A stretch of DNA of 64,000 bases. Source: Bugula neritina. Its lineage: Eukaryota; Animalia; Bryozoa. A model generated the notes under the pieces. It had not been told where the DNA came from. It searched no databases and was given only the letters and a program-made list of their open reading frames with translations. The position numbers were made by a program, and so were the translations under genes. Location: NCBI GenBank assembly GCA_964035545.1, contig OZ037768.1:20319700-20383699 (forward strand), read 5' to 3'. This document shows, in pieces, positions 2-51,200 of this stretch; the first letter of the stretch is position 1; every line of letters starts with the position of its first letter.

Positions 2-3000
2 GTAGCAAAACTGCTTATCAAGTCAGCTTCAGGAGAAAAAGAAAAAGATTTTATATTGTCTGATTCGGAGGATAAATCGACTGCCTTGCATTTTGCAGCT
101 GCACTAGGTAATGTTGATGTTGTAAAACACTTATGTGGGCTTCACAAAGGAGAGCTGCTATTTCAAGTCACAGATAATAAATGGACAGCTTTACACTTGG
201 CTAAAAACGAAGCCATAGCAAAACTTCTTATAGATTCAGTACCAGAAGCAAAACAAAGAGATTTTGTCATGTTTACAGACGCCAATTATGAATTAACTGC
301 TTTGCATATTGCATCAGCTGCTGGAAAAGCTGACCTGGTAAAATATTTGTGTAAACTAGACTGTGATGATGGTAGTATTATTGGTGCTCAAACGACAAAT
401 GGTGCAACAGCTTTACACATTGCAGGCAGCGGCGAGGTTATTGAGGCTACAGTTACCTCAATAAGTTCTCATGTGGTAAAAAACCTTTTGTTACATGAAG
501 ACAAGAAAGGGAACACACCATTACTGTCATTAGCTGAATATGGTCGCTACAAAGCCTTGGAACATCTTCTTGACTATATGAGGGATATTTATAAGCCTAC
601 TGAATTGCAGCGTCATCTGACCAAATGTAACAACAAAAAACAAAACATCTTGCATCTTGCTCCTATGTCTATTGTTTACTGTAAGCAGCTCTTTGAAGTT
701 ATGGACGATTGTATTGCTATAGAGAACATGATGCACCCTGATGTACACGGTAATACCCCTATATCTTACATTGCTGCCATAAATGAAACTGGTGTGTTTG
801 CTGCCATTATGCAGCGCCTTCCTCTGTCAAGCAGACAAAACCTTGCAGATATTTCAAACGAACAGCGGACAAGTTGTAGAAAAATTGTTCTCCAAAACAA
901 AAGTTTTGATGAAAAATATTACATCTGTAAAGTACTGTGTGATTTGGCAAAGCATAAGCTACAGAATAAGTTAAGAAAACTTATGTTCTTTTATGATGAT
1001 GTGGAAAAAAAAATAAACCACTTTAAAGATAATCCAACATATGATGGAAGGCTTTTGAAAATCTTCAAACTTTTTCTGAATGAGTATGAGTTGCTGGGGC
1101 CCGCTCTCACACCCTCGCTCATAACTCGTGCAGACGATGCGCATAAAGCTATGAAATTAGATGATCAGCTTGAGAACAAAGGGGGAATTTCAGTAAGTTA
1201 ATCTTTCTATAGTAGTTAGACTCTCTACTTTCTATATTTTTATGCTAAAGAGGAATCATGCCATTTCTGCTTTAAATAATAATCAAAATACCAGGCTGCA
1301 TTTCAGTTTATCCTAATGTTCAATATGTTTACTCACATTATCTATCAAACTCATTAAAATCACATTAATGCAGAAATTACTTTCTAATAACTTGTGATTT
1401 ACTTGATTTTCATTTCGGCCCTTTTTAAAAAATGTCATAGCACAAATTGAATGGCATATCAATCATAGTAAAAGCAATAAAGATGCAAAATCACTTGGCA
1501 AAAACTCACTCATGTATGAGACACAAAATATTTGACGTCATGGTTTACATGCGCAATCTAAAGTACTTTGTAAAACAGGAAATGACTTTGTACGTCTACA
1601 GTTCCAAGTCTATGGGCACACTGCATGTTATAACATTGGCATATAACAACCAAAAGGAAGTCCTGAAGGAAAGGGACAGTTGCACACAGAGAAGATAATA
1701 TTTCCATAAAACGTAGCAGTAAACTTAAATATAAAATTAGCTTTAAAAAACTACTATATGTAGCTGTATTGCTGTAGCAGTTTTACTTATTTATTTTAGC
1801 AGAATTTGCTATTTTATATCGTAAATTGTTTCCAAAAATTTCCAAAAGAACCAATAAGCAAGCAATGATAACACAATGCTTAGTTCCATTTTGTTGCTAA
1901 GAAATTGCTGTGTACTTCTAAAAGAAACTTAGTGACCAAAGGCTCATCGAAAATCATAGTTTCTGCTAATAATTTACTACATCTATTGATTTACACTTGT
2001 TCATGTAAATATCTCTTTAAGATTTGTGTATCTAAAACTGATATGCCAACTGCTGTTCTTTTACTAGTTTTTACCTGACGAGGAAGACTACTTCTCCCTT
2101 TTCATAGATGTTAACCTTCTGAGTGACCCAAAGCAGAAAACAGTGCAAGATGTTCTGGACCAAATGGACCTGCATATTGTCAATGGCAAGCCCAAGGTAG
2201 AAGGTGGACATTAATTTCAAATAGTATATTCACCCATTCTGTTTTTGTTGGACTGTAATGCTAATGGAAATAATAATACTGTTTAACCTATACATCTTTG
2301 ACTGAAACTACAGATGGCTTTAGCTACAGAATGATGCTTTTCTTAAATTTTTCATTTGAACATTCTTTAGAAATAGCCTCTTTTTAGTTGCCAATAATTT
2401 TCAATTCTTCACTGATGCTATACAGCCTTTAAAAAACAATTTGCAAATAATTTATGGTTTTGTTAACTTGCAGATAGCAGTCATACGAACTTGTGTTACG
2501 GAACCGGGCCTAAACCCAGTGCCACCAGGGCCTGACTACTTGCTAGTCACAGTACAGTACGACACTAATGATTATAACCGGTAAGAAGTTATCTCCCCGT
2601 ACTTGTGGAAACTTTTGAGTTTCATATGAAGCTGTTCTAATCTTTGCTGAAATTTTACAGCAAACCGTTAGCAAACATAAGACGATTCAGCTCAGTCTAC
2701 AACCTGGTCACTGAACTCTGCAAAAATCCTGGCGTACAGAAAGTAGATATTAACTCTACTCTGAACAGAAAATACTTGAGGGAGGAGAGCGAACTAGCTA
2801 TAGATGAGAATGAACTAGCTATAGAAAGGAGAAAACTAGTTATAGATGGTGGTGAAGTGGCCAAAGAAGGGGGTAATTTAGCCACAGAGAACAAAAACGT
2901 TTCCAATGCAACAGATAATAGCAGCGGATTAGTTAAAGGGAAACTGAGAAAACGTACTGACAGAGAGAAGAGTATTACATCAGCCAGTAGTGAGCTATGC

Positions 3001-5891
3001 CAGCTCATTCCTTTGACACAAACTAATCATATTCTGATAAGTGGAGACAACAGGGGGAAGGCTCTCATAATCTGCAACAACATAAAAGATAAGGGTGATG
3101 ACGAAATCACTGAGAGAAGACGTAAAGTCTTGCAGGATGCTAAAAAAGTCTTTGGTCATCACTTTGGCTGTAACATAGAAGTAAGAATTATGTCTGTTTT
3201 AAGCAATAAAACAACATTGCTAATTGAGGTTGAAAGTTTATAAGAGCAGAATTAATAAATACAAAGTATTAATGTTGTAGAACTCAGTGAATTGCAATCT
3301 TTCTGCACCGGAAATGCTTGATGCCATATCAGAATTCTCCAGATCAGATGGACATGGACCGCTGGCTATCTTGGCGATCTTTTCACATGGTAAAGATGGA
3401 ATGATATATGGACACGATAAAGCTACCAACTGCTCTGTACAGGAAGTAGTCGATAACTTCAACTTAGGACACGTGAAAAACATACCAAAGGTAATATTTG
3501 GAAAGCATAAAAATGCTGAAGCTGGTTAATATATTGCGATAGTTATTGAAATTATTTCTATGCACTTGTATTATTATGTAATTATAATATATATTTATGT
3601 CTTCACCAAATTTGTTGGAATGTACCTCAAAGGAAAAAAGCTGGTTGCTGTCAATAAACTTGTAAAGGCTTTAATTAGACAGCATATTGCAATTATCTTA
3701 TAGGCTTACTATAAATCTATTGAAAAATTATTTTTTTCGAATTGAAGTCATCTTTCCATGAACAAAAAACACTATATTTTAAGTGTGTTGCATGCAGAGT
3801 TTTAACTAAGTTTTGGAAACTGGGAGCTAGCTTTCAAATAATATTATATAAAATTTTTGTGCCCTAACTTGAACCATGCAATTTCATGTTTAAATTTATG
3901 TTAATTTTGCGTCAATTTTTCAGCTGATTTTCATATCAAGCTGCCGTGGAGAAATTCCTGCTAGGTACAACAGAACTCCTGGCAACTTTGAATCTATGGA
4001 TCAGGAGCTAGAGTGGACAAATAAACCAATCAAAAAACAGCTACTTTTCTCAACAAAAAAACAAGCATGGACGAATCTGTCATTCCCACCTTTTGATCTT
4101 CCAGTGGATTGTTATATTTGTTTCTCCACTCTGCCAGACAGCAAGTGAGTGATCGTTCGCCTCAATCAAATATTGAACTTAGCTTTTGGTGTGTGTAAAC
4201 ACAAGTGATATGTGATTATAAACACCCCGCTCTTTCTGTTATTGCTACATTAAAGGTTTTTAGAATAGCAGAGCTGGGGCCAAGTGTACTAGGTGCAGTA
4301 ACGGAAAAAACCGAGAAAAGCCTGCGTTCTTTTGTTTTTTGGCAAATTTTGGTTTAGGCAGTGAGTTAATCCTTGCATGAGAACATGAGTTCTTTTGCTA
4401 TATAACAGTTTTCATCTAGAACCAAGGCTGTTCCCACTGTCCCTGTTACTGTGTGTACCTCAGCCAAGTTACACTGATTGAGAGTTCCAAACATTTTTTG
4501 GCTTGTTGATATTAAATTAACTTTAAAGATTTAGTTGACTTTTTTCGAGTTTTAAGCAAATTGAAGTTATAAGTTGTTCAATTTAGTTTTTAGTATTGGT
4601 GGCCCTTTATCTAAATACTCATGGCTATGTTTTGATCATTATATAATTTTATGTTGCTTTAATAAAATTTACAAAAGTTTTTTGAGCAGCCAACAGCAAT
4701 TTGAATATTATCCAAGCGAGTTACTGGCTATGATACTGTAGTGGGGCACGCGGTATGTGCCTCCACGTGTCCCCTAGCCAATTAGAGATGCGTCAGGTGA
4801 CAACCCCCAGCGATGCGTAACTAGAAGGATGTTGCTGTAATTAGAGAGTGTGCTAGTAACAAGAAAGGATGTAATTGAATAGTGGAAATGTTTTGTGTAT
4901 ATCTTTTCTTAATGTGTAACTGTAAATAAATATATTCTAATCCTACTACAAACCCTCTATTACTGTGGATAAGTAAATCATAATCACAAGCTAGGAACCA
5001 CACATTAACATTGTGTAAATCACAACAATACTGTAATTCAATATCTCTTCTTTTAGTTATATATGAATTATTAAATATAGTTGAATTTTAAATTTGTCTA
5101 GCCTATAGGTACAATTTCTTTTATAGTGCTGAACACGTGACCTACCCACCGATTTCTATCACGGGAATATAGGGAATGTAATGTTTTAATATATTGACTT
5201 GCTTACGTACTAGTATGTTGATTTAAACCAATTTACGTAAGTTATCAATTGACTTCACCTAAAATAATGTTTGTTTGAAACGTGACTTGCCTTGTCTTGA
5301 CGTGGTTTTAACTGATCTCTGCAGAAAAGCGATCAAAATAAGCTGCCATTGAAGTAAAACTATTGTTTATAATAACCCGTTGAACAAGAAAATTAAGCTA
5401 GAAAATAGTAAACAAAAGACATAATGTGTTTGAAGACCAGAAGTATAACTAGTCTAAATCTATAATTATCTTCTATAGTAAACAGCCATTTTTAATTTTA
5501 TATTGAGTTAAAATGCAGTATCAATTTTATCTGCTTTCATAGATCTAAAGCTGGGGTGATGTTTGGGTGTTTTTCTAAGCACCTTTCAGACCTTACCACC
5601 AGTGCACTCTATAAACCCACACCAACTGAAAAGGAAGTGAGTCAAAAAACACCTTCGAGCGAAGAAAATAGACCAGCATCAGCAGCAGGCTCCTCTGAAA
5701 CCACCTACAGCTTGGCCCATGTAGGATCAGCCACTCCTCTCTCTCCAAGAGTAGAACTAACTGAATTACTTGCTGATGTGGCTGGCGCAGTGAGAGAAAA
5801 TTATCGATCAAGATTAACCGTCAACCTTTGTTACTCTGTGAATAGAAACAGTAAACAGATGTATATTGATCTTTTACCTGCGAAAAAGTAG
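2..5891 (+). CDS. Ankyrin-repeat protein with tandem caspase-like domains (5' partial); exons <2-1192, 2068-2196, 2474-2580, 2661-3180, 3281-3490, 3924-4144, 5543-5891 (~908 aa in window)
   Basis: Ankyrin motifs (STALHFAAALG, WTALHLA, LTALHIASAAG, GATALHIA, GNTPLL, GNTPIS). Caspase motifs RGKALIICN, IFSHG (His 3386-3388), PK|LIFISSCRG (Cys 3942-3944), DCYICFST. All introns GT-AG with matching phases (0,0,2,0,0,2). Frame open to the window start. Confidence 0.85.
2791..2895 (+). repeat. 21-bp (7-aa) coding tandem repeat in the inter-domain linker
   Basis: About 5 diverged copies of gaactagctatagatgagaat; translates ELAIDEN ELAIERR KLVIDGG EVAKEGG NLATENK. Confidence 0.7.
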
Positions 5892-6169: not shown

Positions 6170-6352
6170 TGTCCGGTAAAATGGCACAGGTAATAATGGC
6201 ACAAATGGCAATGCAGGTGAAAATTGCACATTTTCATTATTATGGTTTGGGGTTTGGGAAAATTTAACATATGTATGCCAATTTGACCTACTTTTCCATT
6301 TGTGCTATTTTAACCTGTGCCAATTTTACCTGTACCATTTTTACCTAAAATC
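6170..6352. mobile_element. MITE/foldback-like element with internally repeated inverted arms
   Basis: Left arm repeats ggtaaaatggcaca-like units; right arm repeats the reverse complement (tgtgccaattttacc, tgtaccatttttacc). Confidence 0.6.
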
Positions 6353-7764: not shown

Positions 7765-9171
7765 TTACAAAAGTAACACCATGACAAATGTAAACATAGT
7801 TGCAATATGTGGCATTATGGTACTGCTACCACTGTCTGTTGTGCTTGTTTTAGGAGTTGGTTTAGTGGTTGGTTTTTTAGGAGTTGTTTTAGTGGTTGGT
7901 TTGGTGGTTGGTGTCTTAGGAGTTGGCTTAGTGGTTGGTTTGGTGGTTGGTTTGGTGGTAGGTTTAGTTGTTGGTTTAGTGGTTGGTTTAGTGGTTGGTT
8001 TGGTGGTTGGTTTGGTAGTTGGTTTGGTGGTTGGTTTGGTGGTAGGTTTAGTTGTTGGTTTAGTGGTTGGTTTAGTGGTTGGTTTGGTGGTTGGTTTAGT
8101 TGTTGGTTTAGTGGTTGGTTTAGTGGTTGGTTTGGTGGTTGGTTTAGTGGTTGGTTTGGTGGTAGGTTTAGTTGTTGGTTTTGTGGTTGGTTTAGTTGTT
8201 GGTTTGGTGGTTGGTTTAGTGGTTGGCTTAGTGGTTGGTTTAGTGGTTGGTTTAGTGGTTGGTTTGGTAGTTGGTTTGGTAGTTGGTTTGGTAGTCGGTT
8301 TGGTAGTTGGTTTAGTGGTTGGTTTTGGTTTAGTGGTTGGTTTAGGGGTTGGCTTAGTGGTTGGTTTTGGTTTAGTGGTTGGTTTGGGGGTTGGTTTAGT
8401 GGTTGGTGCGACTGTAGTGTTGTGTTTGTGAGGAACATCTACGACTTTAGGTGGAGCTGCTCCATCAATCACTGCTATGAGAACTACACCTACAATAGAC
8501 ATGTATTACTTCATCAGAGCACATATCTTTAGCATACAGTTTAGTCATACAGAGCTATTGTTTTAAATATCTTATATATTGAAACTGGTAAATAATTTGA
8601 TTATAGTAATAATTGATGAATTGTAAAACTATTTTTATCATCTTCAATGTGTTTCAATATACAATAACTGAAATGCCGAGAAAGTTTGAGTTTACCTTTA
8701 TATTTTTATACATAGTGTAAAGACATATTGAACGGTAACGTTTAGCTCTATAAGAGTTCTAAAGTAAAGCACTACAGTCACAACATGTACCGTCTATTAG
8801 ATCAGTGGTTGTTAACATTACTCTGATGCTCTTCCTAACATCACCAATGGCCTTTGTCTAGGCTCGAACCCATGACCTTCGTGCTTACTAGGCAAACGCT
8901 CTAACCCCTAGACCACGGCTGCTCCATAGTGTATTTAAATTTTACTTACAGCATATTTATGTTGTACCTACAATATACCTACAGTTCCTATATTTCACCT
9001 ACAGTGTACCTACAGTGTACCTACAGTGTACCTACAGTGTACCTACAGTGTACCTACAGTGTACCTACAGTGTACCTACAGTGTACCTACAGTGTATTTA
9101 CAGTGCACTTACAAGGTGTAGGCAATCGTTTACTTACCAAGTATAGCTAGAATAATTGTGTTCAGCTTCAT
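7765..9171 (-). CDS. Secreted, probably GPI-anchored Thr/Lys/Pro-rich mucin-like protein; complement(join(7765..8489,9138..9171)), 252 aa
   Basis: Exon ATG AAG CTG AAC...CTT G|gtaagt joins in phase 1 to ttgtag|GT GTA, giving signal peptide [21 protein letters not shown]. Then a long TTKP array and C-terminus [23 protein letters not shown] typical of a GPI signal. Possible 5'UTR exon ending at 9821 (ctgaag|gtatgt). Confidence 0.85.
7850..8405 (-). repeat. 12-bp coding tandem repeat (accactaaacca; TTKP)
   Basis: Variation between units is mostly at third codon positions of the TTKP frame. Confidence 0.95.
8822..8925 (-). mobile_element. tRNA(Thr-AGT)-derived SINE, partial copy
   Basis: A-box-like tggtctaggggttag and B-box ggttcgagcc, followed by ccattggtgatgttaggaagagcatc; no acceptor stem; close match to the copy at 32516. 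Confidence 0.75.
8985..9105. repeat. 11-bp minisatellite (cagtgtaccta)n
   Basis: Direct inspection; lies in the mucin gene intron. Confidence 0.9.
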
Positions 9172-32740: not shown

Positions 32741-34124
32741 AAATATATCAACACACGGAGGCCATTGAAACTTCAAGAACACAATTTATTGAATAAGTGT
32801 CTAAAAAGACGTTTGCAATTAGTTCTTGTTGAGACTAATAGAAGTGTAAATAATGACCAGAAATAAAAAAATACTAAAGATTATTTTAAAGTAATGTTAC
32901 TTCCATTGTTTACCTGACAATGAACTACAAATAAAAGATATTATTGATTAATCAACAATTTTTACACACTTATTATAATCACTTGACTAATATAAAGCTT
33001 TTTTCAACTGTTTCCCAGTTTATTTAAATTAATGACTACTCTAAATATCTGCACCCGAAGTGTATAACTATAATAATAAGGATGCTGAAGGTACATTAAT
33101 AAAAATAACATAGTAAAAAATGAGGATCAAAATCTAAATTTTCAAAAACTCAAGTTGAGGTGTTTTGGATCAAATCTCTTGATTCCATAACCAACTTGAT
33201 TGAACTTGAAGAATTGCTGACACATTACATTGATTTTGCAGCATTAAATTATTCACAGATATCTTGACTATCAACTGAATACAACTTGAATACAACCCAA
33301 GCATATTGGGTTTATAATGAATTTTCTTAATACATGTTTCGAATTAAGTCATGATGATGGCTCACTAGTTGATGACGCTTTTGTGCAGCTCAGTGTCTGC
33401 AGCGATGTAGAACTGATACTAATTATTGCTGATTTTTATTGCCTTATGAAACCCTGAAGTTGTATTTAGCTAATAGCCAAGATGTGTAAAAAAATTATTA
33501 CTGCATAAATGTAACGTGTCAGGAATTTTTTAAAGCTACTGTTAGAAGCAAGCAAGTATATTCAAAATAATTCTAATCGACTCAGGCTATTGCTTGACTT
33601 GACTTGTACCTAATTTTTTTAATTTCAGCAATGACTGATTTCAAGTACATTAGCTATTGACTCAATAGGCCTAGCTGATAGAGCGAATCATTGACTTAAT
33701 TTTGACTAAACATATAAGACTAAAAGTGGCTTACAGTTACCAAGTCCAAAATTTACAAAACGACTAATAGGCCTACTTTTACTAACACTATTAGTAGTAT
33801 TACCATTATCACTAGCTGATAATCATAATAGTAATAATAATTATCAATTTTTATAGTTTTATAATGAAGACTAATACTCCGTTATTAATTATTACTAATA
33901 GTATTACTAGTAGTAATAGTAATACTTCATTATTTATACTCATACTGTAATCATAATGATCATGAGAAACGACATTCATATCTAATTATATATTCATACT
34001 TATAACCGAGTTTATATTCATACTGAGATAAATTATAACCTAATTACTCCAAGACTAAAGTTAGTGTGATAACTTAAGATACTGAATAATATATTCAATT
34101 TGACATTTGATGCATATTCATACT

Positions 34125-36860
34125 CTTTCACTATTGCATGCTATTACCGTAGACCCTGTATAAAACAAGTAGAAGATATAGTAAATTGGTATTATGATCA
34201 AACCAATCCGAACATTGTTATGGTTGGGGATTTTAACCTACCTGACATTGACTGGAATGATAGTAGCAGGCCTGTACTTAAAACAACTAGAGAAACTAAC
34301 TTGCACCAATTGTTCGTAGATTTTATAATTTCGAATAATCTTTCTCAGGCTATCAATAAACCTACTCACGACAAAGGTAATACGCTTGATCTAGTTGTTA
34401 CAAATGTAACTACCACTAACCCCCGAGTTGAGTCATCCTGCTCTGACCATTTTATTATCAATTTCAATGTGTTGGCGGATAATGTTATTAAAAGGACAGC
34501 ATCCCTAACCAAACCAAAACCATATTGGCAGTTTGAAAAGGCAGACATAACGAACATCACCGTGGACTGTTACTCCCTACATTGTAAAATCACCTCAGAT
34601 ATCTCTAAGAAATGTAGCGCTGAACAGTTATGGCATAATCTCAAATCTGGAATACTTCAGGTAGCCCATTCCAATATCCCATACAAATTTAGAAAGAAAA
34701 AATCAAAACTCTGGATATCCCAAGAAACTAAAAGTGAGATCAGAAAAAGAAAACACCTCCACCTAGCTTGCCTTAACGATCGCACCCCGCACAACATTTT
34801 AAAACATGCCACCCAGTCCCGGTACTGCAAGAAATTGTGTAACAGGGACTATAATATTTATATAAACAAACACATATGCAATACATTAGAGCAGGGTGAT
34901 TCAAAACCTCTTTATCGGTTCATAGCAAGTAAAAAGGGCAGCTCAAATACTGTACGCCAACTAGACAACATCCCCCCCTAACAACAATACTGCTATAGCT
35001 GAATCTTTTGCGGACTCCTTTGCTTCTGTGTTTTCTATTGGTGATGGTAATATCCCTCCCTGCATTCCACCTCAAACTATATCATCTCCTATACAATTTG
35101 ATCCTCGGGGAGTCCTAACACAGCTCACCAAACTCGATCCACGAAAAGGTGCTGGCCCAGATGAGCTTTCTCCTGCACTTCTAAAATATCTTGCACATTA
35201 TATATATGAGCCCCTGACAAAAGTTTTTCAGTACTTTTACGATACATCTCAGACACCACAAGACTGGAAAACAGCAAACATTGTACCGATCTTCAAGAAA
35301 GGAAGTCGTACAGACCCGCTGAATTACAGGCCAATATCACTCACTTCTATCATATCCAAAATCTTCGAGCATATCGTATCACATAATATCAACTGTTTCC
35401 TCGAATCAAATGACCTGTTTTACCCACACCAACATGGTTTCAGGACAAATCATGGCTGCGATACTCAGTTGTTGAATACAGTGAGTGAATTTATAGATTT
35501 TTTTGACGAAATGATACCGGTTGATCTCGCTGTCTTGGATTTTTCAAAGGCCTTTGACGTTGTGTCGCACCATAAACTACAGGTTAAACTGCTAAATATC
35601 GGAATAGCTGATAAAACTGTCAAATGGATTTTTTCATGGCTTCAGAACCGTCTTCTTTCAGTCTGTGTCAACAACGTCAAATCGGCCACTAGACATGTGA
35701 CCTCAGGAGTGCCCCAAGGCAGTGTATTAGGACCATTGTTATTTAATGTGTACATAAATGACATGCACTCTGCGGTAGCCAACAGCAAGCTTAAACTATA
35801 TGCAGATGATTCCTTGTTGTACAAACCAATCACAACACCTGCTGATTCTAGTTTATTTCAGAATGACTTAGACCATCTTATAACTTGGGCAGACAGTTCT
35901 CAGATGAAGTTCAATATAAATAAATGTGAGCATATGACAATTCAACGCTCCACTGTAAATCCTCTAGTGTCTCAATACAGCATGAATAATGACCCCTTAC
36001 AATGTGTTGACAAAGTATTATACCTTGGTGTCACGATTGATAATAAACTGTCATTCGATCAACATATAATAAACATTTGCTCAAAAGCTAATAAATTATT
36101 ACACATGCTGATGCGCTGTCTAAAAAAGGCTAAAAGTAAAACCAGAGCCATAGCTTATAAAACAGTCTGTCGCCCTATACTAGAATTTGCGACCCACACC
36201 TGGTCTCCATTTAAATTGAAAAACATCAACATCATAGAAGGTATAAATAGAAAAGCCTTCAGGTGGACATTCTGTAAGAGAAAACGAAATCATATAACTG
36301 AGCTCATGACAAATTCTAATTGGGATAGCCTTGCACAAAGACGTGACAATGCAGACCAAAAAATGTACTTTCGTATGCTTTCTGGTAGTGCCGCTATCGA
36401 CCAAGACCGGTTCTCCCTTCATTTTGCAGAGTCTCACAATACCAGACATGGTGCTATTAAGGGCAATATCAATACCAAAACTGCCAAACATTCATATAAA
36501 CATCGCATCCATAAACTTTTCTAATGATTCTAGCTGCTTTGCCTAACTGATTATAAGCACTTAACACCGACTCTGCTTTATATCATCTGAAGCTGTGCGG
36601 TGTATATCTATTTATTTATATTCTTTTTTTTTTTTTTTTTTTTTTCTTTTTCTTTTTTTCTTTCTCTCCTGGCAGTAGCTAGCTATTGATCTTTGAATCG
36701 AAGCATAATTAACTTTATTCTTATCTCGTAGACAAAATAGTTTTCTTCCTTACTACTGATAATCTAAACAATTGTTCATACACCACTGCATCTCGATAAA
36801 GGAGCCAAAGCGCTCCGAGTGAGATTAATTAGATGAGATGAGATGAGATGAGATGAGATA
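34125..36860 (+). mobile_element. 5'-truncated non-LTR retrotransposon (CR1/L2-like): partial APE endonuclease + reverse transcriptase, one frameshift
   Basis: GDFNLPDIDW, GNTLDLV, SDH (endonuclease); NYRPISLTS, QHGFR, LDFSKAFD, GVPQGSVLGPLLF, YADD, YLGVTID (RT). The two ORFs fuse if the C7 run at 34972-34978 were C6. 3' UTR ends in (AGATG)n at 36831-36859. Confidence 0.95.
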
Positions 36861-41300: not shown

Positions 41301-43513
41301 TAAGATTGTAACTTTCTGTCCAAAACTGGATCCTGTTCTATATACTTGTGAAGTTGGTTAAGAATTAAAAAAAACTTCTGCTTTGCCAAGGTTTGTAAAT
41401 ATTGGCTTAAAACTTGAATTTGATGCAACTGTCTTGAGCAAACACATTTTTGAACTAAATTTACCTGTTGAAATTAAACTGCATGAAAAAGTGGCTATCT
41501 TTTTACATGCTTCCAGTTGGATATTTTCACATTTTTAGAATATTTCTAATTTTAAAATGCATGTTTTGACATGATAGCCACCTTTATAGCCTTGTTGATG
41601 AGCTATAAACAATTTTACAACCTATATTATTTAAAGCATAACATTCTTTATCTCTCTTCAAACATACTTATAGAAAGCCAACTTTTGGTTGGCTTTGTTG
41701 ACTAGCAAGGGACTGACACAAGCGTGTTCAGCAAATAGTTTCACTCTGAAACTATAATCAAGGAGAAAAATTGGAATCTTTTTCTAACTAAACTGCTGGT
41801 TTCTATTTAATCCAAATGTAAACCCAACATAATATACCAAAATCTGGTCCACTGTTCTTAATTTGCTAAAACAAAGAACAAAGCTCTACCTATTGTATAT
41901 TAACTATATCCTATTAGCAAAACTACCCATCATCTAAAGTCTAAACTTAAGACTGCACACTACAGATTAGTAGTAATAGTTCATCAACTGTAAACTCTTG
42001 TGATATAAGTTTTAGCAACCCCAGTCATTAAGTAGTTGCAAGTATTTTACTCAAGTTTCTGGGGGTTTTCACTGCTAAGAACTTAGTTCCTAGTGAAACT
42101 ACCATGCAACTTGATTATCAGTTAATAAAACTCTCGTCTTGTAGCGATTGCATAATAGGTGCTACCTGTTATGTCCAGCCAATTTTCCTGGAATTTCACC
42201 AAAAAAAATGTTGATGGGAGATAAATTATATGGTTGAGACTGTTGTAGCTGTTAGATAAACTGTCAGAGTACTGTGGTTTCAAACAAATTGGCAGAGGGA
42301 CATCATAAATAAACATTTCAAAATGCACACTCAGCTTCTACTGAGAGAGATTCTGCACGCTGAGTCTGATATTCAACACCTATGCTGGCATCCTGCATAG
42401 ATATGTTTTGAATAGATTGCCTAGGGACCAAGTTCTTGCTCAACTCTCATTGTCAACTTCAGTATGCCATCACTCAGTCACTGTTTAGCCAATAAATCAT
42501 ATGATTAGCGTTATAGCTTCACTGTTTGCAACGGACATGAGAGGCGCTCGTCATAAACTATCTCATAGTGAAAGAGGTAGCTAGTTATTCTCGTCGCGTT
42601 ATGGAGTGTTTGCCATCATATCTGCTCAGTAAATGTAGAGCTTTTACTTCTTGTCGCTTCTAGCTGTTCGGTATATTTCTTGGTCAACAAATAGGGGCGT
42701 TTACTGAAAGGTAATTTATACAAGTTTCTCTTCATTTATTGCTAGTTGTAAGGTTATACCAAGCTAGTAGGTCAGCTGTTAATTTAGTGACTTTCCTAAT
42801 AAACTCGGGCTATCATGTTTCAGTTTTAGTGTTTATAGCCAGTTTTCAACACTGGGCTACACAGCTACATTCTCTCTAGTTGTTAACTCAATAATTATGA
42901 CAGCAGAATATGATAGCAAGTAGCTTCAAGGCTTTGATTAGCATAACTTAATTGCACTGTCAAGAAATTGCTAAATTGCACATTGTCCGGGTAGACATAT
43001 TGCCACAGTGAGATTATTTTTTTATCTATGAACATCTGGCATCTAAAAAGATGGTATATCTAGTGCAAGATAACAACATGCTATAGTAGTAAACAGCTCA
43101 TATGAATGGCAATGTCTATACTGCATATATTGAAAATCTTAGGCAATATGAATTAATAGCCACCACCACATTGTACTAATTCACATTGCATGTATGTGGT
43201 ATTCATCTCTCTGTATAATATATAGTGTTAGTGTGGTCATTTATTTTTATTATAAGCTCATGATCTTATAATGTTAAATAGATTAATAGATTTATTCTAA
43301 ATGTGTTGGTAACAGTTGAGGGAGTTGAAGGAATATTTGGCATGAATTATGAAAATATATGAAAACCAGACTTTCTGTCTGCATGACGCCATTTGTATAG
43401 TGCAGAGTTTAACGACAGAGGGAGGGAGTCCGTGATTGCTGCCAGTGTTTGTCGCTGTCAGTGATGACAGATATTCTCATGGTGTTTTAGGTAAGGCAGA
43501 CAGGTCAGCCGAC

Positions 43514-46500
43514 ATGGGAAACATCAGTTCTGGGAAAACAAAGGATCACAAGCCCCCTACACCCTGCTACCCCCTTACCTCTGACAAGAAGAGTGTACAG
43601 CACAAGAACGATCTCAACTCCAAGCAGCCCTCTCAGCCTACCCACCACACACCCACTTATATTGACACTAAGAACGGCAGCATTCAGTCAGTCAAGCCCG
43701 TCAGCGACAAGTTACCTGGCGTCAGCGTACAGAAGATGGTTGCTGACTCTCCCACTCAGGTCCCCGGTGACCAGTCCAAGAGTTCTCCTCAGGGAGTCAG
43801 CATAGATGGCGTGAAGCTGACTTTAGACGTGAACAATAGTCGACCATCCAGTAGGTCCAACACTCCTCTCCAGCCCAGAAAGAATGGCTCGAATGGTTCC
43901 TATTTGGCCCAGTCCCATACTGAGCACAAGGGCTCTAGCAGTAGTCTCAAGGACTCCCAAGCTAAAGATATTATGATCAGTTACAGTCATCTGGATAAAG
44001 AGATTATGTTGAAGCTCAAAGGTTTGGCTCTACTACACAATTTATATTCTAGAATCTAAAATCTGGATAGTAAGACTTAAACATCTTATTCTGCCCACCC
44101 AGTGTTACTGAGAACTGCTCTCAGGAGAATTGTTGTATAGAATTTGTGTGAGCATTGAATAAAATTGACTAGTCTAACTGCTACTAATATTTCACTTGAA
44201 TTGCTATAATGTAGCCTAGCTTATTGATTAGTAACATGTAACACTCGGTGCCGCACAACTCAATTATCACTCGCTGCTGCAGTATACTTGTACTCCTTAC
44301 TTTTACTTCCAATGATGGATATACTCCATTTAAACATTCATCATTTTGATATATGGCACTGTGCCACTTTGGCACTGTTTAGTTTAGGCTTACCTGTTAA
44401 CCAGTTGTCACAAATCACCTATTGTCAGTCTACTTGAGTCAGGGCAGTAGAATTTCACAAAACTTGCAGTAACTCGATCCTTATTTCTTCCAAAACTAAG
44501 CAGGTGTTCTAAAAATGCTCTCTTTCTAATAGTTTACATGTGATTGTTGCAGATGCACTGGAACATCACAACATATCTGTTTGGGTGGACGTGGTCGGCC
44601 TCAATGCTGGTGTTAACTTTCTCAACAAAATAGGCCAAGCTATCATTGACTCAAAGGTAGGTACACAGGCTATCATTAACTCAAAGGTGGGTACACAGGC
44701 TATCATTAACTCAAAGGTGGGTACACAGGCTATCATTGACTCAAAGGTAGGTGCACAGACTATCATTGACTCAAAGGTAGGTACACAGGCTATCATTGAC
44801 TCAAAGGTAGGTACACAGGGTATCATTGACTCAAAGGTGGGTACACAGGCTATCATTAACTCAAAGGTGGGTACACAGGCTATCATTAACTCAAAGGTGG
44901 GTACACAGGCTATCATTAACTCAAAGGTGGGTACACAGGGTATCATTGACTCAAAGGTAGGGATCGTTCTATAAGCAGCTCAGTGTTAGAGTCTGGGGGT
45001 TTAAGTTGGAACTTGGAGCCCCCAACTCCAAACTTGATAGTCCAAACTATTGCACTCAGTTATCCCCAACTCAGAGCTGCTCATATAATAATTCCAAAGG
45101 TGAAAGTTGTAGGTGATGATGGAGCAAATAGTATCACTACAGAATAAGTTTAGCAGATTAGCCCTAAACTAAGTTGTTCTGGTAGCGTAGTAGATAATCT
45201 AAAAGAGTTGGTGATGCAAGAGTTCAAACCCCACTCTCAGCATGTTATTTTCAGTATATATCATGTAGCAAAGGGTAATATCTAAGGAAACAGCTAACTG
45301 CAGCACACCAGTTAGGGCAGCTGGAGTCTATACTGGCTTATTTATTCCTGTACTCTTCACGGAGTCGATGGAAAGGTTATTAGTGCTGAAGGGAAGGTGT
45401 GCTATTCTTGGCACTAAATTAGCTCTTAAAATACACTGGTTGTGAACAAACAATACGTAAATATGAAGACATTAGAGCAGTGGACATTGTTACTATTGTA
45501 TTGGCTCAATTACCTTCTGAATTGAATTCGGAAAGAAGGAGTTCCGTTTGTCAAATGACTCATAATGTTTACATATGATAATTGTGTCACATGGTGATAG
45601 ATAGGGATTAGAAGCCCCCCCCCACATCAGATGATCTTCTGCTATCAATTTTCAGGCACCAGCTCTATATAGAGTATAGTGGGTTTCAACAATGAATTAA
45701 CATCTTCAATGAATATTATGAGATTGCATTTAATTTATACCTGTCGGCCATATTAAAAGCATTGCAAAATTTTAGTAAAAAGTATTAAGTGTTTCTTGTT
45801 CCACCACTCATATTGGGTTTTCGAAATAGGTGTGGCCAACACCCACTCCAACCCAAGTAGTATATATCTAGTATAAGAAATAGGGCAATGTCAAGGAGTC
45901 TTGGATAACATATGCCAGGCTTGGCTAAGATAAATTGGAATTCTTTAAACATTTTTTGTTTTTGAAAATGTGATGCAGTGAAATCAAATTGTCATCTAGA
46001 TTCTATTAACACGACATCATAGCTTACTTAGAGCAGTAAAACATTTCCACAGCCTATAATATTATGTAACTCAAGTTAGCAGTGTTATTAGAACAAACAT
46101 TCTACAGCAGATAATGATCTTATCTGCCATTGAACAATACTTAATATCAGAAAGTAAAACTTTAGTTAACCTAGCATTACTCTACTCTTTCATCATGGTT
46201 GTGCAACATGTCCTATAATATCCTTTAATATAATATAATGCAGCCATTATTGCATGTAGGCCATAATTATTTCTCCATGCTTAGTTAAGAGTTCAAACTT
46301 TGACAATCTCAAAAAGTGCCTTGTTTCAACAATTAGTTGTGATTCCACATTCAGTTTGGGCAACACACCAACCCCAACCAAAAGACACCATCCAATATGT
46401 GAAATTAAGCAACTCGAAATGTCTGTTTTACAAAATGTATCTTGTGTTTCTTGGAAATAAGATAATGTTGTTAGGGTGAACCACAAACCCCCTTCCGCAA

Positions 46501-49500
46501 AAGTTGGAGTTCAACAACATAGCACCTAAATTACACAACTAAGTTATCTCAGTGGCGTTGGTGACTTTTCAAATAGATCATTCAGTTTGAGGCATTCCTA
46601 AGAGATGATTCAGAGGGTGCTATCGCCCATTTCCTTTTGCAACATCTTTGGAAACTAGCATACACGCGTAGCCATATTACACTGTATACGTGAGTTGTAG
46701 GGTAGTTCACTTGATGAAACAGCAGCAAAAAGAAACTTGGTGATGCAGACCTTGTGTGATGCAATGTTGCCCAATAAATGACCCAGTAACCTGCCATCCA
46801 TGGTGAAGAGTGTGTAATGATTTGTGTACAGTTTTGGTGGGGGTTGATTGACCCCATTTAGTAGGACAATATTTCATATTTATGTATGGTATTTTGGCAT
46901 TAAAGTTGGTCATATTTTCTGATGGGAGTCTGTAGCCTTGGCGACTCGTTTCCGGCAACTGAAGCATAATTATGTTAATTTGTGAAATCATTGTAGATGT
47001 TCATAACTTTGCTGACAGAAAGGACCGTAGCCTCCAAGTTCTGCCAAGATGAGTTGGCGCTGGCATATATTTCCAATAAACCCATATTTCCTGTTAGTCT
47101 ACAGCCTCAGTCTGAAATCTTTCCCAAAATTCCCACCGGAATGTGAGTATGGCACTGTTCTTACCCCCCCCCCCCCACCTGTGTCCTAGTAAAGTTTGTT
47201 TTTTTTTGTCAGGTGAACATTTAATCAACTAGTAAATAAAAGACTAAGTACCACCTTGAGACAGTCATCAATAGTTGAGGTTTCAAATATCATATACAAG
47301 GTTATTCATCTCTTCCATTACCTTTCTAGTAGCCCTTTCATTCACCAGTAAATAAACTGTTAAAATTTAGTTATTTGTTTATTGGGTTTGTTTGCCTACT
47401 GAATGAATCATATTTTACTAATTTCATATCCACATTTTTTCATCACATTTTCAGAGATTATAAATAAATTATAAAGCTCTTAGATGAAACATTCTATTGA
47501 CCTCGTGTCAAGTGGTAACACATAATTTTAGTTTGGGAGACATGCTAATTGAATCCTGACATGTAATCTTCAGCTAATAGTCTTAGCATTAAGTACCCAG
47601 CTATGACATAGTGTAGTATAAGTATCTTTTCAGGAATTCTCATCACAAATTTTGTTAGTTGCCACAGTTTTCTTTGAATAAGAAATCTTGAATACCTGTA
47701 TTGTGTAACGGTTTTGCTTTTATATTTAAATCTTTAGGGCTGTAAAACCTCTTTTTCACCAGTGCTCAACTTGTGATGTGAACTTTCACTGTGCAGGAAT
47801 CATTCTGGTGTTTTCATATAACAAATAATAATGTCAATTCTTCTTATTGTATTAGTTTACTGAGAAAGGTTACTATTCAACTGTTATCTCCAGTTTCATT
47901 GCCAGGTTTTAATGTCACAGTTAAAATGCATGTTTATATAACTTGGTTTCCATGTTACTCTGTAGCTCTGTAGTCCTACATGCCTCTAAGTAGGTTCAAA
48001 ACTTAAGCCTTTCTTTAATGACTCCAAAACACAAGCAAATTCTCTCTAGTTATCTATCAACGTAGTAGTGCTACTTTCATTAGAGGAAATGGTGATATTT
48101 GTGGAAGTTTGTGTAACTTATTCACTGATACTGCGTACCACTCGGTGTTGGTGGTAAGATGACGCAATCTCTTCTCTCACAGGAAGTTGCAGCTGGCCAG
48201 GTTCGAGTGGACTCAGATCTCAGTAGAGAATTTCAATGAAGACATACAAGTGTTGCTGAAGAAGCTGCAGGCATGTCTGGACGACATGAGATCAGAAGGC
48301 AAAGACGGTAAGTCGCTTGTACCAGTAACCGAGTCTCTCTGAAAGTTGTAACCCTTGGAACTGGTCACCTGTATGTTCCTAGTGTTTATCTAGAGCTTAA
48401 GATCTGGTCTTGTTGTTGTTTCCGTTGTGTTTTATCACAACTATGTTGCTCTGTGATTTCTCTTGATTTCGTAAACTCTGATTATCTCTATTTGTCAAAT
48501 TATAAAACTTCAGTGAGAATCAACTTGTTATACGGTTGCAGACGTACCGGATCTATCATCACCTCCAGCGGAGGACAAACTGCCTTTCAGGAAAACCCTG
48601 AAGAGGAAGGTGACCAGGCCCAAACTGTACCAGTACAATCGGTCACTCTCCAGGTGCAACTCCATTATTGAGCAGACAGAAGATATTGACGCCCAGGCCG
48701 AGTTTTGGGACAGAAACTTTGGAGATCTCAATGCTGTGCAGTTTGATAGGTGAGGCATTTGGCCCGACACAAATAGTCTTGTTTAGCTAGGTTCATGTGG
48801 CTACACTTTGCTCACATTGTTTGTGTGTAAGTGGATCTACTATAATCTTATACTAACAAGTCCAACTCTAAACATGTGTTTCTATCGTCACAGATACGGA
48901 AACTTAGTTGTTTCACTGCGATTTGACGTGGAGTAGCCTATATCTTTTTTAGTTTAAATTTGTGAGCCAGAAATCCGTTTAACTGCTTGGGCTGAAAAAA
49001 AAACAGATTCTCCCTCAATCTTGAGCGGAAAAATAATAGTCACAATGTAGCATATTTTGAACTGTGCTGTTTTTTTTGTAGTTTTGAAGCCTCTTTTACA
49101 AAAGATTACGAGCGTCAGCTGAACATGACTTATGCGCTGTCAGACAGGGAATGGTTTATTGATATCTTGAAGCGGGAGCTGGAAGTTGAGGAAGATGGAT
49201 TTATTCACAAAGAGAAGTATAAAGGTCAGTATATAATATGACTAAAGCCTCACTAGGACATAGGGTAGTAAATGAGGAAGTGATTGTTGATACAAGTTTT
49301 AGTGTGTGAGATTAGATTCAGCTGACATGATCAGTTAAGTCATAAATACATCATTTAACATTAAATGATATCTAAATTATGCCTTTATCAGTGTACTTCT
49401 GTCATCTTAGATTGTAAAGTGACTTTTTCAATTGTTCAAACACTTTACTTGACTGAAATTGACAATTTTCCTGTTTTCTAAAGACACAAAAATTACTAGG

Positions 49501-51200
49501 TGAATTTCAGTGCTTGGTGTTCAAGACAGTTACTAATATACAGAATAGGATTCAGATTTCATGCCGCTAAGGACCATGGCTAAGTTTTGAGTTTCTTGAG
49601 ATCAAACAAAGAGAACTCATTTATTATGCATAGTTTGATTAGGTTGACTAAATAGAATGTCAATTCTGATTAATTTATGTTGTCACCAAAGGCTTAACCA
49701 AATTAATTTTGCCTGCTCATATGTCTATTTAGGCTGTCAAAAACATTGTTGCATTGCAAGTATTAATTCCAGGAAAGTTGTTGTTGGCTGCAACTATGCA
49801 ACTTGCAGGTTATTTAAATATTTTGGTTAATAAGTGAACTTTGCCTAAAGCCACGTTGTCTGCTCTCACTGAGCTAGGACTGTCTCCCGCCTGATACCCT
49901 CACAGACACATTTTCAAGAGCTCATCGCTATTGCATGTTTTTGTTTCCATATCTTTAACCTGCGAGATTATTAAAATGCGGTAGTTAACCTCTGTCTGCT
50001 GTTGTGTAGAATTCATAACTGAAGAACTCGATGGCACCTTGAAGGAACAGCCCATACTCAAATGCGTCAATGATTTGGCTGTAGAAAACTACACAATGAA
50101 GGAAGTATTCAACATGGATTCTTCAGTTAGACTGGATGCTATTAATAACTTAGGTATGTGCTTTCAGTGAAAAGGTTTATTTCCATTTTCTACATTGTGC
50201 AAGCAAGTTAATGACTTTATCAACACTGATGATTCGATTCTATCAACACCATCATCTTATACAAACTAGACGTCTATTTCATGTGGACTCATTGCATTTA
50301 TTTACAGCAAAGTTTGGTAGTGTGGCAGTGGTAGAGGCTTTGTTAGACCTGCTAGACGACCAAGAGCATGATGTCAGAGCTACTGCTTGCATTTCATTGG
50401 CTAAATCGAAAGCTGGTGATCTGAGTATGAAGATAGATCGACTAATGAGATGTCTCCGAGATAGCGACCGCTTTGTTAGAGAAAGTGCGTGTGTTGCTCT
50501 CGGCTATTTGAGAGCAGAAGAAGCAGTTCCCGTGTTGCTTCAAATCTGGTAACTTTCCTTTTCTGACTCTGATAACAATATCAATTCTTTTTGATAAAAC
50601 AAATATTTTTTGCTGTAGCAGATAAAGTCTGCTCTAAATTAGCAATACTGTCGAATCTTCCTTCATATATGCACTAGTTGGAAGTCACTCACACATTATT
50701 GGTCTGATTCATTCTTATAAACTTTTGATCATGTTATTATCACGCCAGAACATTTGATATATTACAATTTAGTAATTAATTCATGTTTTACAGGAGAAAT
50801 GACTACATATCTAGTGTGAGAGATGCAGCAGAGTTGGCGCTAAAGCAAATTGGTGGCAGTGAAGTCAACAGAGCCATGGAAATGACCAATGTGCTTACAG
50901 CGGAGATTGGTGAACTTATCAAGGTTTGCTTTTATGCATAACATTAGAAATTCGCTCTCCGATAAATTGGCATTCTACTTCCTGTTTAAGCACCGCCACT
51001 TCCTGTTTACATATCATTACATATAAAATATTTCTTTATACATCTTTTAGGTGCTCACTGGTAAAGGAACTTCTCCTAAAAACCCTTTAAGATCAAAGAA
51101 TTGGACACCACTCAATGCTAACACTCTACCAGCCAACTTTGGTACTTCTACTGGTGCGATAAGTTTGATGTCAGCCCCCAACAGAAACACTATAGAATAG
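43514..51200 (+). CDS. Putatively myristoylated TIR / EF-hand-like / HEAT protein B (catalytic Glu present); exons 43514-44021, 44553-44656, 46997-47142, 48183-48307, 48542-48749, 49082-49224, 50010-50153, 50308-50548, 50794-50923, 51051-51200 (632 aa)
   Basis: Ten exons give a 1899-nt stop-free frame. MGNISSGK start; TIR_2 pattern DIMISYSHLD...SVWVD...LNAG...IGQAIIDSKMFITLLT...SKFCQDELALAY...KPIFPV (Glu 47051-47053); HEAT repeats LLDDQEHDVRATACISL, LRDSDRFVRESACVALG. Probable 5'UTR exon ending at 42710 (gaaag|gtaatt). Confidence 0.9.
44636..44962 (+). repeat. 30-bp tandem repeat containing the splice donor of gene B exon 44553-44656 (11 in-frame donors)
   Basis: Unit gctatcatt(g/a)actcaaag|gt(a/g)ggtacacag; translates (VGTQAIIDSK)n without stops. 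Confidence 0.95.
44961..45095. mobile_element. Short MITE abutting the 30-bp repeat array
   Basis: ggatcgttctataagcagctc ... gagctgctcatataataattcc; similar to 24161-24288. Confidence 0.65.

Follow-up and report, generated by a model that had tools for sequence, protein, structure and literature searches.

A spliced bryozoan gene that joins ankyrin repeats, a putative truncated pseudo-caspase and a probable caspase-like protease in one chain

Near the 5' edge of a 64,000-nucleotide stretch of the genome of the bryozoan Bugula neritina (contig OZ037768.1, positions 20,319,700 to 20,383,699; hereafter, the window, to which all coordinates refer) lies a gene that raises the question whether its single protein chain carries both a caspase and an inactive partner. 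The original prediction, made from the letters of the sequence, read this gene as ankyrin repeats followed by a pseudo-caspase and a caspase that form a built-in heterodimer, with the ankyrins in the place of a CARD or DED prodomain. We find a spliced gene for one chain that comprises ankyrin repeats, a first module (module 1) that is very probably derived from a caspase, and a second module (module 2) that is probably a protease with an atypical substrate pocket.

The gene occupies positions 2-5891 of the window on the plus strand and starts beyond its 5' edge. Its seven exons, joined by their coordinates, yield 908 residues in a single frame with one terminal stop, without a frameshift or internal stop across the 908 codons, and no second copy was found within the 64,000 nucleotides. 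Exon 1 (2..1192, open at the 5' edge; residues 1-397) encodes ankyrin repeats (Pfam Ank_2, E=4e-21) and ends in a conserved helical block that appears as further ankyrin-like repeats in the AlphaFold model of the Bugula homolog P0003, residues 1-123 of which align with ankyrin proteins in the VIA-align structural search. Module 1 spans exon 2 (2068..2196; predicted strand 3 and helix 3, ending in PK, without an SHG motif), exon 3 (2474..2580; predicted strands 4 and 5 with a short linker between them, and a Cys codon at 2492 in the catalytic column) and the start of exon 4 (2661..2781; a single helix, then predicted strand 6, which carries the STLNRKY motif). After a poorly conserved inter-module linker in the middle of exon 4 (2782..3033), module 2 begins at the end of the same exon (3034..3180; strand 1 and helix 1), such that the end of one module and the start of the other share an exon and a reading frame. 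As originally described, the exons at 2068-2196, 2474-2580 and 2661-3180 encode the quoted motifs and are bounded by AG and GT. Among the exons searched one by one, only exon 1 (ankyrin repeats) and exon 5 (Peptidase_C14) have Pfam matches, and exons 2, 3 and 6 have none.

That the ankyrins and both modules are joined in a transcript, as originally proposed, was borne out in a close relative of the gene. We used X1 and X2, two contig sets from one sample, the RNA status of which is a guess judged from joints that skip introns; among the runs listed as containing the sequence, none is recorded as RNA. All six introns are bridged, each of them in one or more contigs that extend 31 letters or more to either side; five joints read GT..AG, and the first, which joins the exon 1 donor at 1193 to exon 2, has four substituted letters at the junction. 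One contig of 963 nucleotides connects exons 1-5 and so covers the end of the ankyrin exon, module 1 and part of module 2 (1124-1190, 2070-2194, 2472-2579, 2660-3180 and 3281-3418); it differs from the window at 74 positions and thus, at ~92% identity, stems from a close relative or a paralog, not from this allele. At a further joint, 3470 is connected to 3941 by 37 different letters, as many as splicing at 3490/3924 would leave between them; this points to a spliced paralog with the same intron. It weighs against our reading that this support comes from a single sample and may belong to a paralog or a related species. In run X3, 1872-4157 is present in one piece, introns included, and a word search with the end of exon 1 gave no match among 132 candidates.

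The gene belongs to an expanded family. Word searches identified the Bugula neritina proteins P0001 and P0002, and cluster look-ups added P0003 (named CASP9), P0154 and P0157, along with P0007 and P0025 from Bugula and P0027 from Watersipora subatra. In P0001, P0002, P0003 and P0154, module 1 lies between the end of the ankyrin stretch and module 2, of which at least the first part is present; the annotation of P0003 gives the full layout in a single protein, that of P0027 only module 2, and the Bugula entries are named either hypothetical protein or CASP9. A HMMER search with P0003 produced 182 matches at E<=0.001, and the 150 matches listed include many exon-sized family fragments, ordinary caspases and low-complexity matches. 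The motif that closes the ankyrin exon was found in 32 collected sequences, the long relatives measure 932-1287 residues, and Pfam detects ankyrin repeats in all seven long relatives of the exon-1 type that were scanned. Judged by sequence, Bugula neritina has several paralogs with the ankyrin, module 1 and module 2 layout, and the named family members are cheilostome bryozoans. No CARD, DED or death domain was detected in 10 relatives or in P0001-P0003, some of which may be single exons or truncated models, the 5' end of the present gene being outside the window; of the 98 pattern matches of a metagenome scan with P0003, none proved to be a relative.

Both modules lie in one frame in 19 family sequences (near-copies included), separated by a linker of 32-206 residues. 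In the window, this linker contains short 7-codon repeats at 2790-2860, with an extra 21-base unit in one transcript contig, and relatives carry long repeat expansions there. Among ordinary caspase records, we also noticed repeated motifs, namely, two QACRG in P0106, a repeated block in P0053 (caspase-8, partial) and two SHG in P0144; these may be real tandems or annotation fusions.

Module 2 was predicted to be a caspase, an assignment that holds for the fold family and the catalytic dyad but less well for the substrate pocket. Exon 5 (3281..3490), which encodes the large subunit with the SHG His at 3386-3388 and ends in PK, matches Peptidase_C14 on its own with 22.6 bits (cut-off 21.4), compared to 45.5-52.9 bits in P0001-P0003, and is 71% identical to P0002. 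A family profile of module 2, built without six ordinary caspases that were present in its first version, matches ordinary caspases at E=1.6e-23. Exon 6 (3924..4144) provides the catalytic Cys (3942-3944) in the context SSCRG, a long inter-subunit linker and strand 5, and exon 7 (5543..5891) the end of the small subunit, with helix 4, a low-complexity insert, helix 5, strand 6 and the stop. The catalytic His and Cys are both present in 11 of the 11 family rows that cover those columns, counts that come from a search favouring query-like sequences. An Arg at the start of helix 1 (3118-3120 in the window) is invariant in 18 of 18 family sequences, at about two residues from its ordinary register: it precedes the Gly that ends helix 1 by 16 residues, compared to 18 in the ordinary caspase P0152. 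The two pocket Arg residues of caspases are R179 and R341 in the numbering of caspase-1. Two observations count against a conventional caspase: the Gln of the QACxG motif is present in none of the 11 module-2 rows, being replaced by Ser, Cys or Thr, and loop 3 is shortened, with an Arg or Lys 13 residues from the strand-5 Asp versus an Arg at 16 ordinarily. Activity of module 2 on Asp is therefore uncertain, and we consider it probably a protease with an intact His/Cys pair and an atypical pocket.

The case for module 1 has to be assembled from several lines. Pfam names no caspase there and finds only one C14 stretch in each of P0001-P0003. The SHG/THG motif is missing from all eight module-1 copies, in agreement with the original prediction, and by comparison with module 2, some six residues are missing from the loop that follows strand 3. 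In the QAC column, Gln is retained in six of seven copies, whereas Cys, which the original prediction had paralleled with that of module 2 and which is indeed encoded at 2492, is kept in only two of the seven (P0001 and P0003 among the copies counted are 94% identical); paralog P0154 reads QKC in this column, and four of seven copies have the Arg that ordinary caspases carry 16 residues from the strand-5 Asp. Without the His motif and, mostly, without the Cys, module 1 is likely to be catalytically dead. It appears to be maintained nonetheless: identities to P0001 and P0002 are 51% and 41% for module 1 and 50% and 66% for module 2, compared to 19% for the linker (P0001), so that conservation is similar in the two modules and much lower in the linker.

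Direct comparison of the two modules of the window protein gave a Smith-Waterman score of 49, reached by nine of 2000 shuffles; in P0002, the best-scoring stretch was another one, which is not homologous (16 of 2000), and the P0001 comparison gave 256 of 2000, so that, with no support from these paralogs, the pairwise similarity alone is weak. Alignment A5 was used for the family; in A2, A3 and A4, the fragments of exon 4 were out of place, and A2 in addition aligned some module-1 rows with module 2, so that these three were set aside. The profile of the module-1 core (P0003 160-278, 22 rows) matched 23 ordinary caspases, a set from which one false motif row had been taken out, with a score of 35.4 (E=3.7e-5), the best of 100 column shuffles reaching 17.8; against module 2 it scored 24.7 (best shuffle 20.0). 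The tail of module 1 showed a weak match to the C-termini of ordinary caspases (2 of 100 shuffles) and none to module 2, and a profile search of A5 against the Protein Data Bank sequences returned only ankyrin-type proteins among the best 60 of 107.

The AlphaFold model of P0003 1-285, computed from a 33-row alignment without ordinary caspases (mean predicted local distance difference test score, pLDDT, 64; predicted template modelling score, pTM, 0.39), has helical repeats up to residue 119, then a strand (165-170), a helix (178-188), two strands (199-206 and 221-228), a helix (247-255) and a strand (260-267); module 1 is thus given only strands 3-6 and two helices. A single-sequence AlphaFold model of P0002 (pLDDT 33) was not used. 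A Foldseek search with the P0003 model placed entries of caspase-8, -3 and -6 in the first five rows, the lowest E being 0.016. VIA-align, run against 48,161 chains, placed cFLIP at Z 6.0 (root-mean-square deviation, rmsd, 4.5; 115 aligned residues) and Sf-caspase-1 at Z 5.9 (rmsd 4.5; 116 aligned), with CED-3, caspases-8, -9 and -4, Dronc, legumain and the GPI (glycosylphosphatidylinositol) transamidase in lower rows. The ESM Atlas model of P0002 150-365 matched a caspase-7-like cluster with a template modelling (TM) score of 0.60 over 180 residues and a cFLIP cluster with 0.59, the next rows lying at TM 0.41-0.48 and all rows below the naming bar of the tool.

Several of these results weigh against the assignment. 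No Foldseek row reaches E<=0.001 and no VIA-align row reaches Z 8, and the VIA-align top is shared with DegV/FakB (Z 6.3 and 6.2, rmsd 2.5-2.7, 85-87 aligned). The ESM Atlas feature scores of 0.85 and 0.88 to caspase clusters are leads only. The N-terminal third is disputed, with AlphaFold leaving 123-161 without resolved structure and the Atlas model aligning 180 residues, and the 100 residues before the module-1 core match neither ordinary caspases (E=0.23) nor module 2 in the profile comparison. Between strands 5 and 6, module 1 has one helix where caspases have two, and the match of this helix to helix 5 of module 2 is not significant (33 of 100 shuffles). We also considered module 1 as a full fold starting inside exon 1, which is unsupported by the profile and AlphaFold, though the Atlas model is compatible with it. 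Every search line thus falls below its own threshold; taken together with the motifs, they lead us to regard module 1 as, very probably, caspase-derived. On the strength of the AlphaFold model, it looks like a truncated caspase fold rather than a whole domain. The notion of a pseudo-caspase accordingly finds support as to ancestry, from the profile, the Atlas and the ranking of caspases by Foldseek and VIA-align, but as a truncated one and with no single decisive search.

A duplication within the gene had been proposed from the intron positions. Both modules indeed have a phase-0 intron immediately after PK and a Cys as the seventh codon of the next exon (2492 and 3942). Read-through protein fragments, on the ends of which the intron positions in other species rest, end at PK in both modules as well. 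In addition, a Val or Ile followed by Gln, 18 and 17 residues before the PK end, occurs in six of six module-1 and five of five module-2 sequences, with Gln at that position in two of 28 ordinary caspases; the shared spacing implies a loop some three residues shorter than in most ordinary caspases (two of the 28 are also short). The shared intron, motif and loop length favour duplication within the lineage, which we consider likely on this sequence comparison. Against a simple account stand the later phase-2 introns, which share the phase, as described originally, and the loop, but whose positions, counted from the Asp at the opening of strand 5, differ by three codons; the higher score of module 1 against ordinary caspases than against module 2; and the retention in module 1 of ordinary caspase features that module 2 has lost. 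A tree of 25 rows and 147 columns joined the two modules with a support of 14 and a long-branch warning, so that a common clade is neither shown nor rejected. If real, the duplication would be older than the divergence of module 2.

Inactive-plus-active tandems and the comparison with cFLIP are already in the literature, as are ankyrin caspases. In coral caspase-X (Acropora), as described in the available text, an inactive caspase-like domain precedes an active caspase domain in one chain, with several paralogs, as in the present gene; the pair was modelled on cFLIP/procaspase-8, with strand 6 and helix 5 forming the domain interface, and removal of the inactive domain led to more killing of HeLa cells (PMC4715348). 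Caspase-X is reported as restricted to corals, and its text does not mention ankyrins and describes the second domain as typical in all respects (PMC4715348). In the bryozoan gene, by contrast, a truncated module 1 is predicted, and the Gln of QACxG is absent from module 2. Mammalian caspase-16 has a dyad-less caspase-like prodomain, without an inter-subunit linker, that arose by exon duplication with conserved intron phases (PMC12198278), and for it the same cFLIP comparison was drawn but is biochemically untested there (PMC12198278; and PMC12292325, in its available part). It resembles our gene in the inactive domain before the caspase and in the conserved phases, and differs in belonging to the caspase-14 clade, in the duplication of both subunits and in an N-terminal prodomain without a sensor in front (PMC12198278). 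ANK caspases of parasitic flatworms and one annelid, in which ankyrins replace the CARD or DED and which are proposed initiators, likewise have an ankyrin prodomain in lophotrochozoans; the main text of that survey, so far as it was available, mentions no second caspase-like domain, describes the clade as parasitic-flatworm-specific, and contains no occurrence of bryozoa, Bugula or Membranipora (PMC11463336). In the freely accessible articles, exclusive of supplements (those of PMC11463336 and PMC4715348 could hold domain tables), we found no combination of ankyrins with two caspase domains, no truncated partner and no bryozoan caspases; the accessible part of PMC7836458 held nothing relevant.

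How, then, might such a chain work? Caspases need to dimerize to work, and tuning by an inactive partner is known mainly from cFLIP. In the cFLIP-L/caspase-8 heterodimer, a pseudo-caspase partner leaves one active site; the two are separate DED-bearing proteins, and cFLIP has the whole fold, unlike the situation here. For module 1, cFLIP ranks first among the caspase-family rows of VIA-align and second in the Atlas structure list. The strands of the caspase sheet follow the order 2-1-3-4-5-6, and the contact between two paired domains is made by strand 6 and helix 5, an interface that PMC4715348 also gives. The elements modelled for module 1, strands 3-6, are those of the interface side, and the far-edge elements are missing or degenerate, which suggests docking on module 2; strand 6 and a helix next to it, both kept, are the parts that form the interface in the caspase-X model (PMC4715348). 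Module 1 would thus keep only the dimer-facing half of the fold and serve as a built-in partner; by analogy with caspase-8/cFLIP and the coral models, we give pairing through strand 6 and helix 5 about an even chance. Each chain would then have one active site, and the ankyrin stack, adjoining module 1, could control the pairing. By the same analogy, the bryozoan protein may work like caspase-X or cFLIP/caspase-8, and the greater toxicity of caspase-X devoid of its inactive domain slightly favours restraint, rather than activation, at rest. The complete scheme, with a dead, caspase-derived partner that docks on the dyad-bearing caspase of its own chain and the ankyrin stack as the input, we put forward tentatively, at somewhat less than an even chance. 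Sensing of a ligand by the ankyrins is the weakest of these inferences and doubtful.

It appears unlikely, though by no means negligible, that module 1 is instead a caspase relic that pairs between chains, in a dimer, ring or filament, and replaces the CARD or DED as a clustering unit. The fold evidence would be the same, the long, variable linker allows such an arrangement, the strand-6 motif of module 1 is strongly conserved in 19 sequences, and pairing between chains has been named as an open alternative for caspase-16 (PMC12198278). However, a tethered partner would have a high local concentration, and the models of caspase-X and caspase-16, which are not solved structures, pair within the chain. 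A family of several paralogs would make this open question of caspase-16, pairing within or between chains, testable.

We assign a smaller chance to the possibility that the protein is no death caspase but a scaffold or a protease of unusual specificity, in which the Asp pocket is lost and module 1 only stabilises the junction of ankyrins and caspase. The replaced QACxG Gln in all 11 rows, the shorter loop 3 and the displaced helix-1 Arg would all fit, as would the inter-subunit linker of module 2, which is long and conserved but shows no conserved Asp site by eye. The invariant His, Cys and Arg, on the other hand, fit a working active site with a basic pocket, and an unusual specificity is compatible with the intramolecular partner that we favour.

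Improbable, by contrast, is that module 1 is not caspase-derived at all but a small alpha/beta domain, similar to DegV or to response regulators, with a resemblance due to chance and to a common four-stranded core. The DegV tie in VIA-align, the response regulators that follow caspases in the Atlas list and the concentration of the pairwise similarity mostly on 26 residues are in its favour. Nevertheless, caspases align over a longer range that includes the last strand (115 versus 87 residues), the profile score is twice that of the best shuffle, and module 1 has the PK intron, the V/I-Q motif and the loop length in common with module 2; in P0154, moreover, the QAC column reads QKC. It is hardly credible, finally, that two neighbouring genes, or a pseudogene, were wrongly joined: the contigs stem from a single sample and differ from the window sequence, and some of the Bugula annotations are broken up or leave out exons (P0007, P0025, P0002 and P0157), but the uninterrupted 908 codons, the exon that holds both modules, the six bridged introns and the annotation of P0003 as one protein all argue against it.

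If module 1 is the built-in partner, a natural single chain in which the partner is reduced to four strands would reveal how little structure suffices to switch a caspase. The gene also suggests that tandem caspases may recur across animals and be missed by annotation, Pfam seeing no more than one caspase domain here. Immune or allorecognition signalling in a colonial animal is a role for which an expanded family with variable ankyrin arrays would be a candidate. In a more ambitious version, which we regard as unlikely, bryozoans would have expanded a set of single-chain sensor proteases, where a variable, single-exon ankyrin array (frames of up to ~1,300 residues) reads a ligand, the half-fold is the partner and the active domain has moved off Asp specificity. 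Inactive-plus-active tandems would then have arisen independently for a third time, this one being the first to be connected to a repeat sensor, and the half-fold would be a naturally occurring minimal dimer partner of a caspase.

The remainder of the window contains several other features. At 7765-8505 on the minus strand, facing the caspase gene, there is a Thr/Lys/Pro-rich repeat frame (TTKP units) with a hydrophobic start, mucin-like in appearance. A LINE-type (long interspersed nuclear element) retroelement occupies 34073-36524 on the plus strand in two overlapping frames (Exo_endo_phos_2, E=7e-13; RVT_1, E=5e-31). Pieces of a probable multi-exon gene extend over 43436-50552 on the same strand and include a TIR-like stretch (TIR_2, E=0.008, below the cut-off), a frame with a tandem 10-residue repeat (44513-44974, +) and HEAT repeats (50154-50552, +), which are only presumed to belong to the same gene as the TIR-like stretch. 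High-copy small repeats stand out by their depth in run X3, with ~20,000 at 6170-6350 and 1,000-1,600 at 4740-4920, compared to ~115; the repeat at 6170-6350 shows opposite-strand joints, as expected of an inverted-repeat element.

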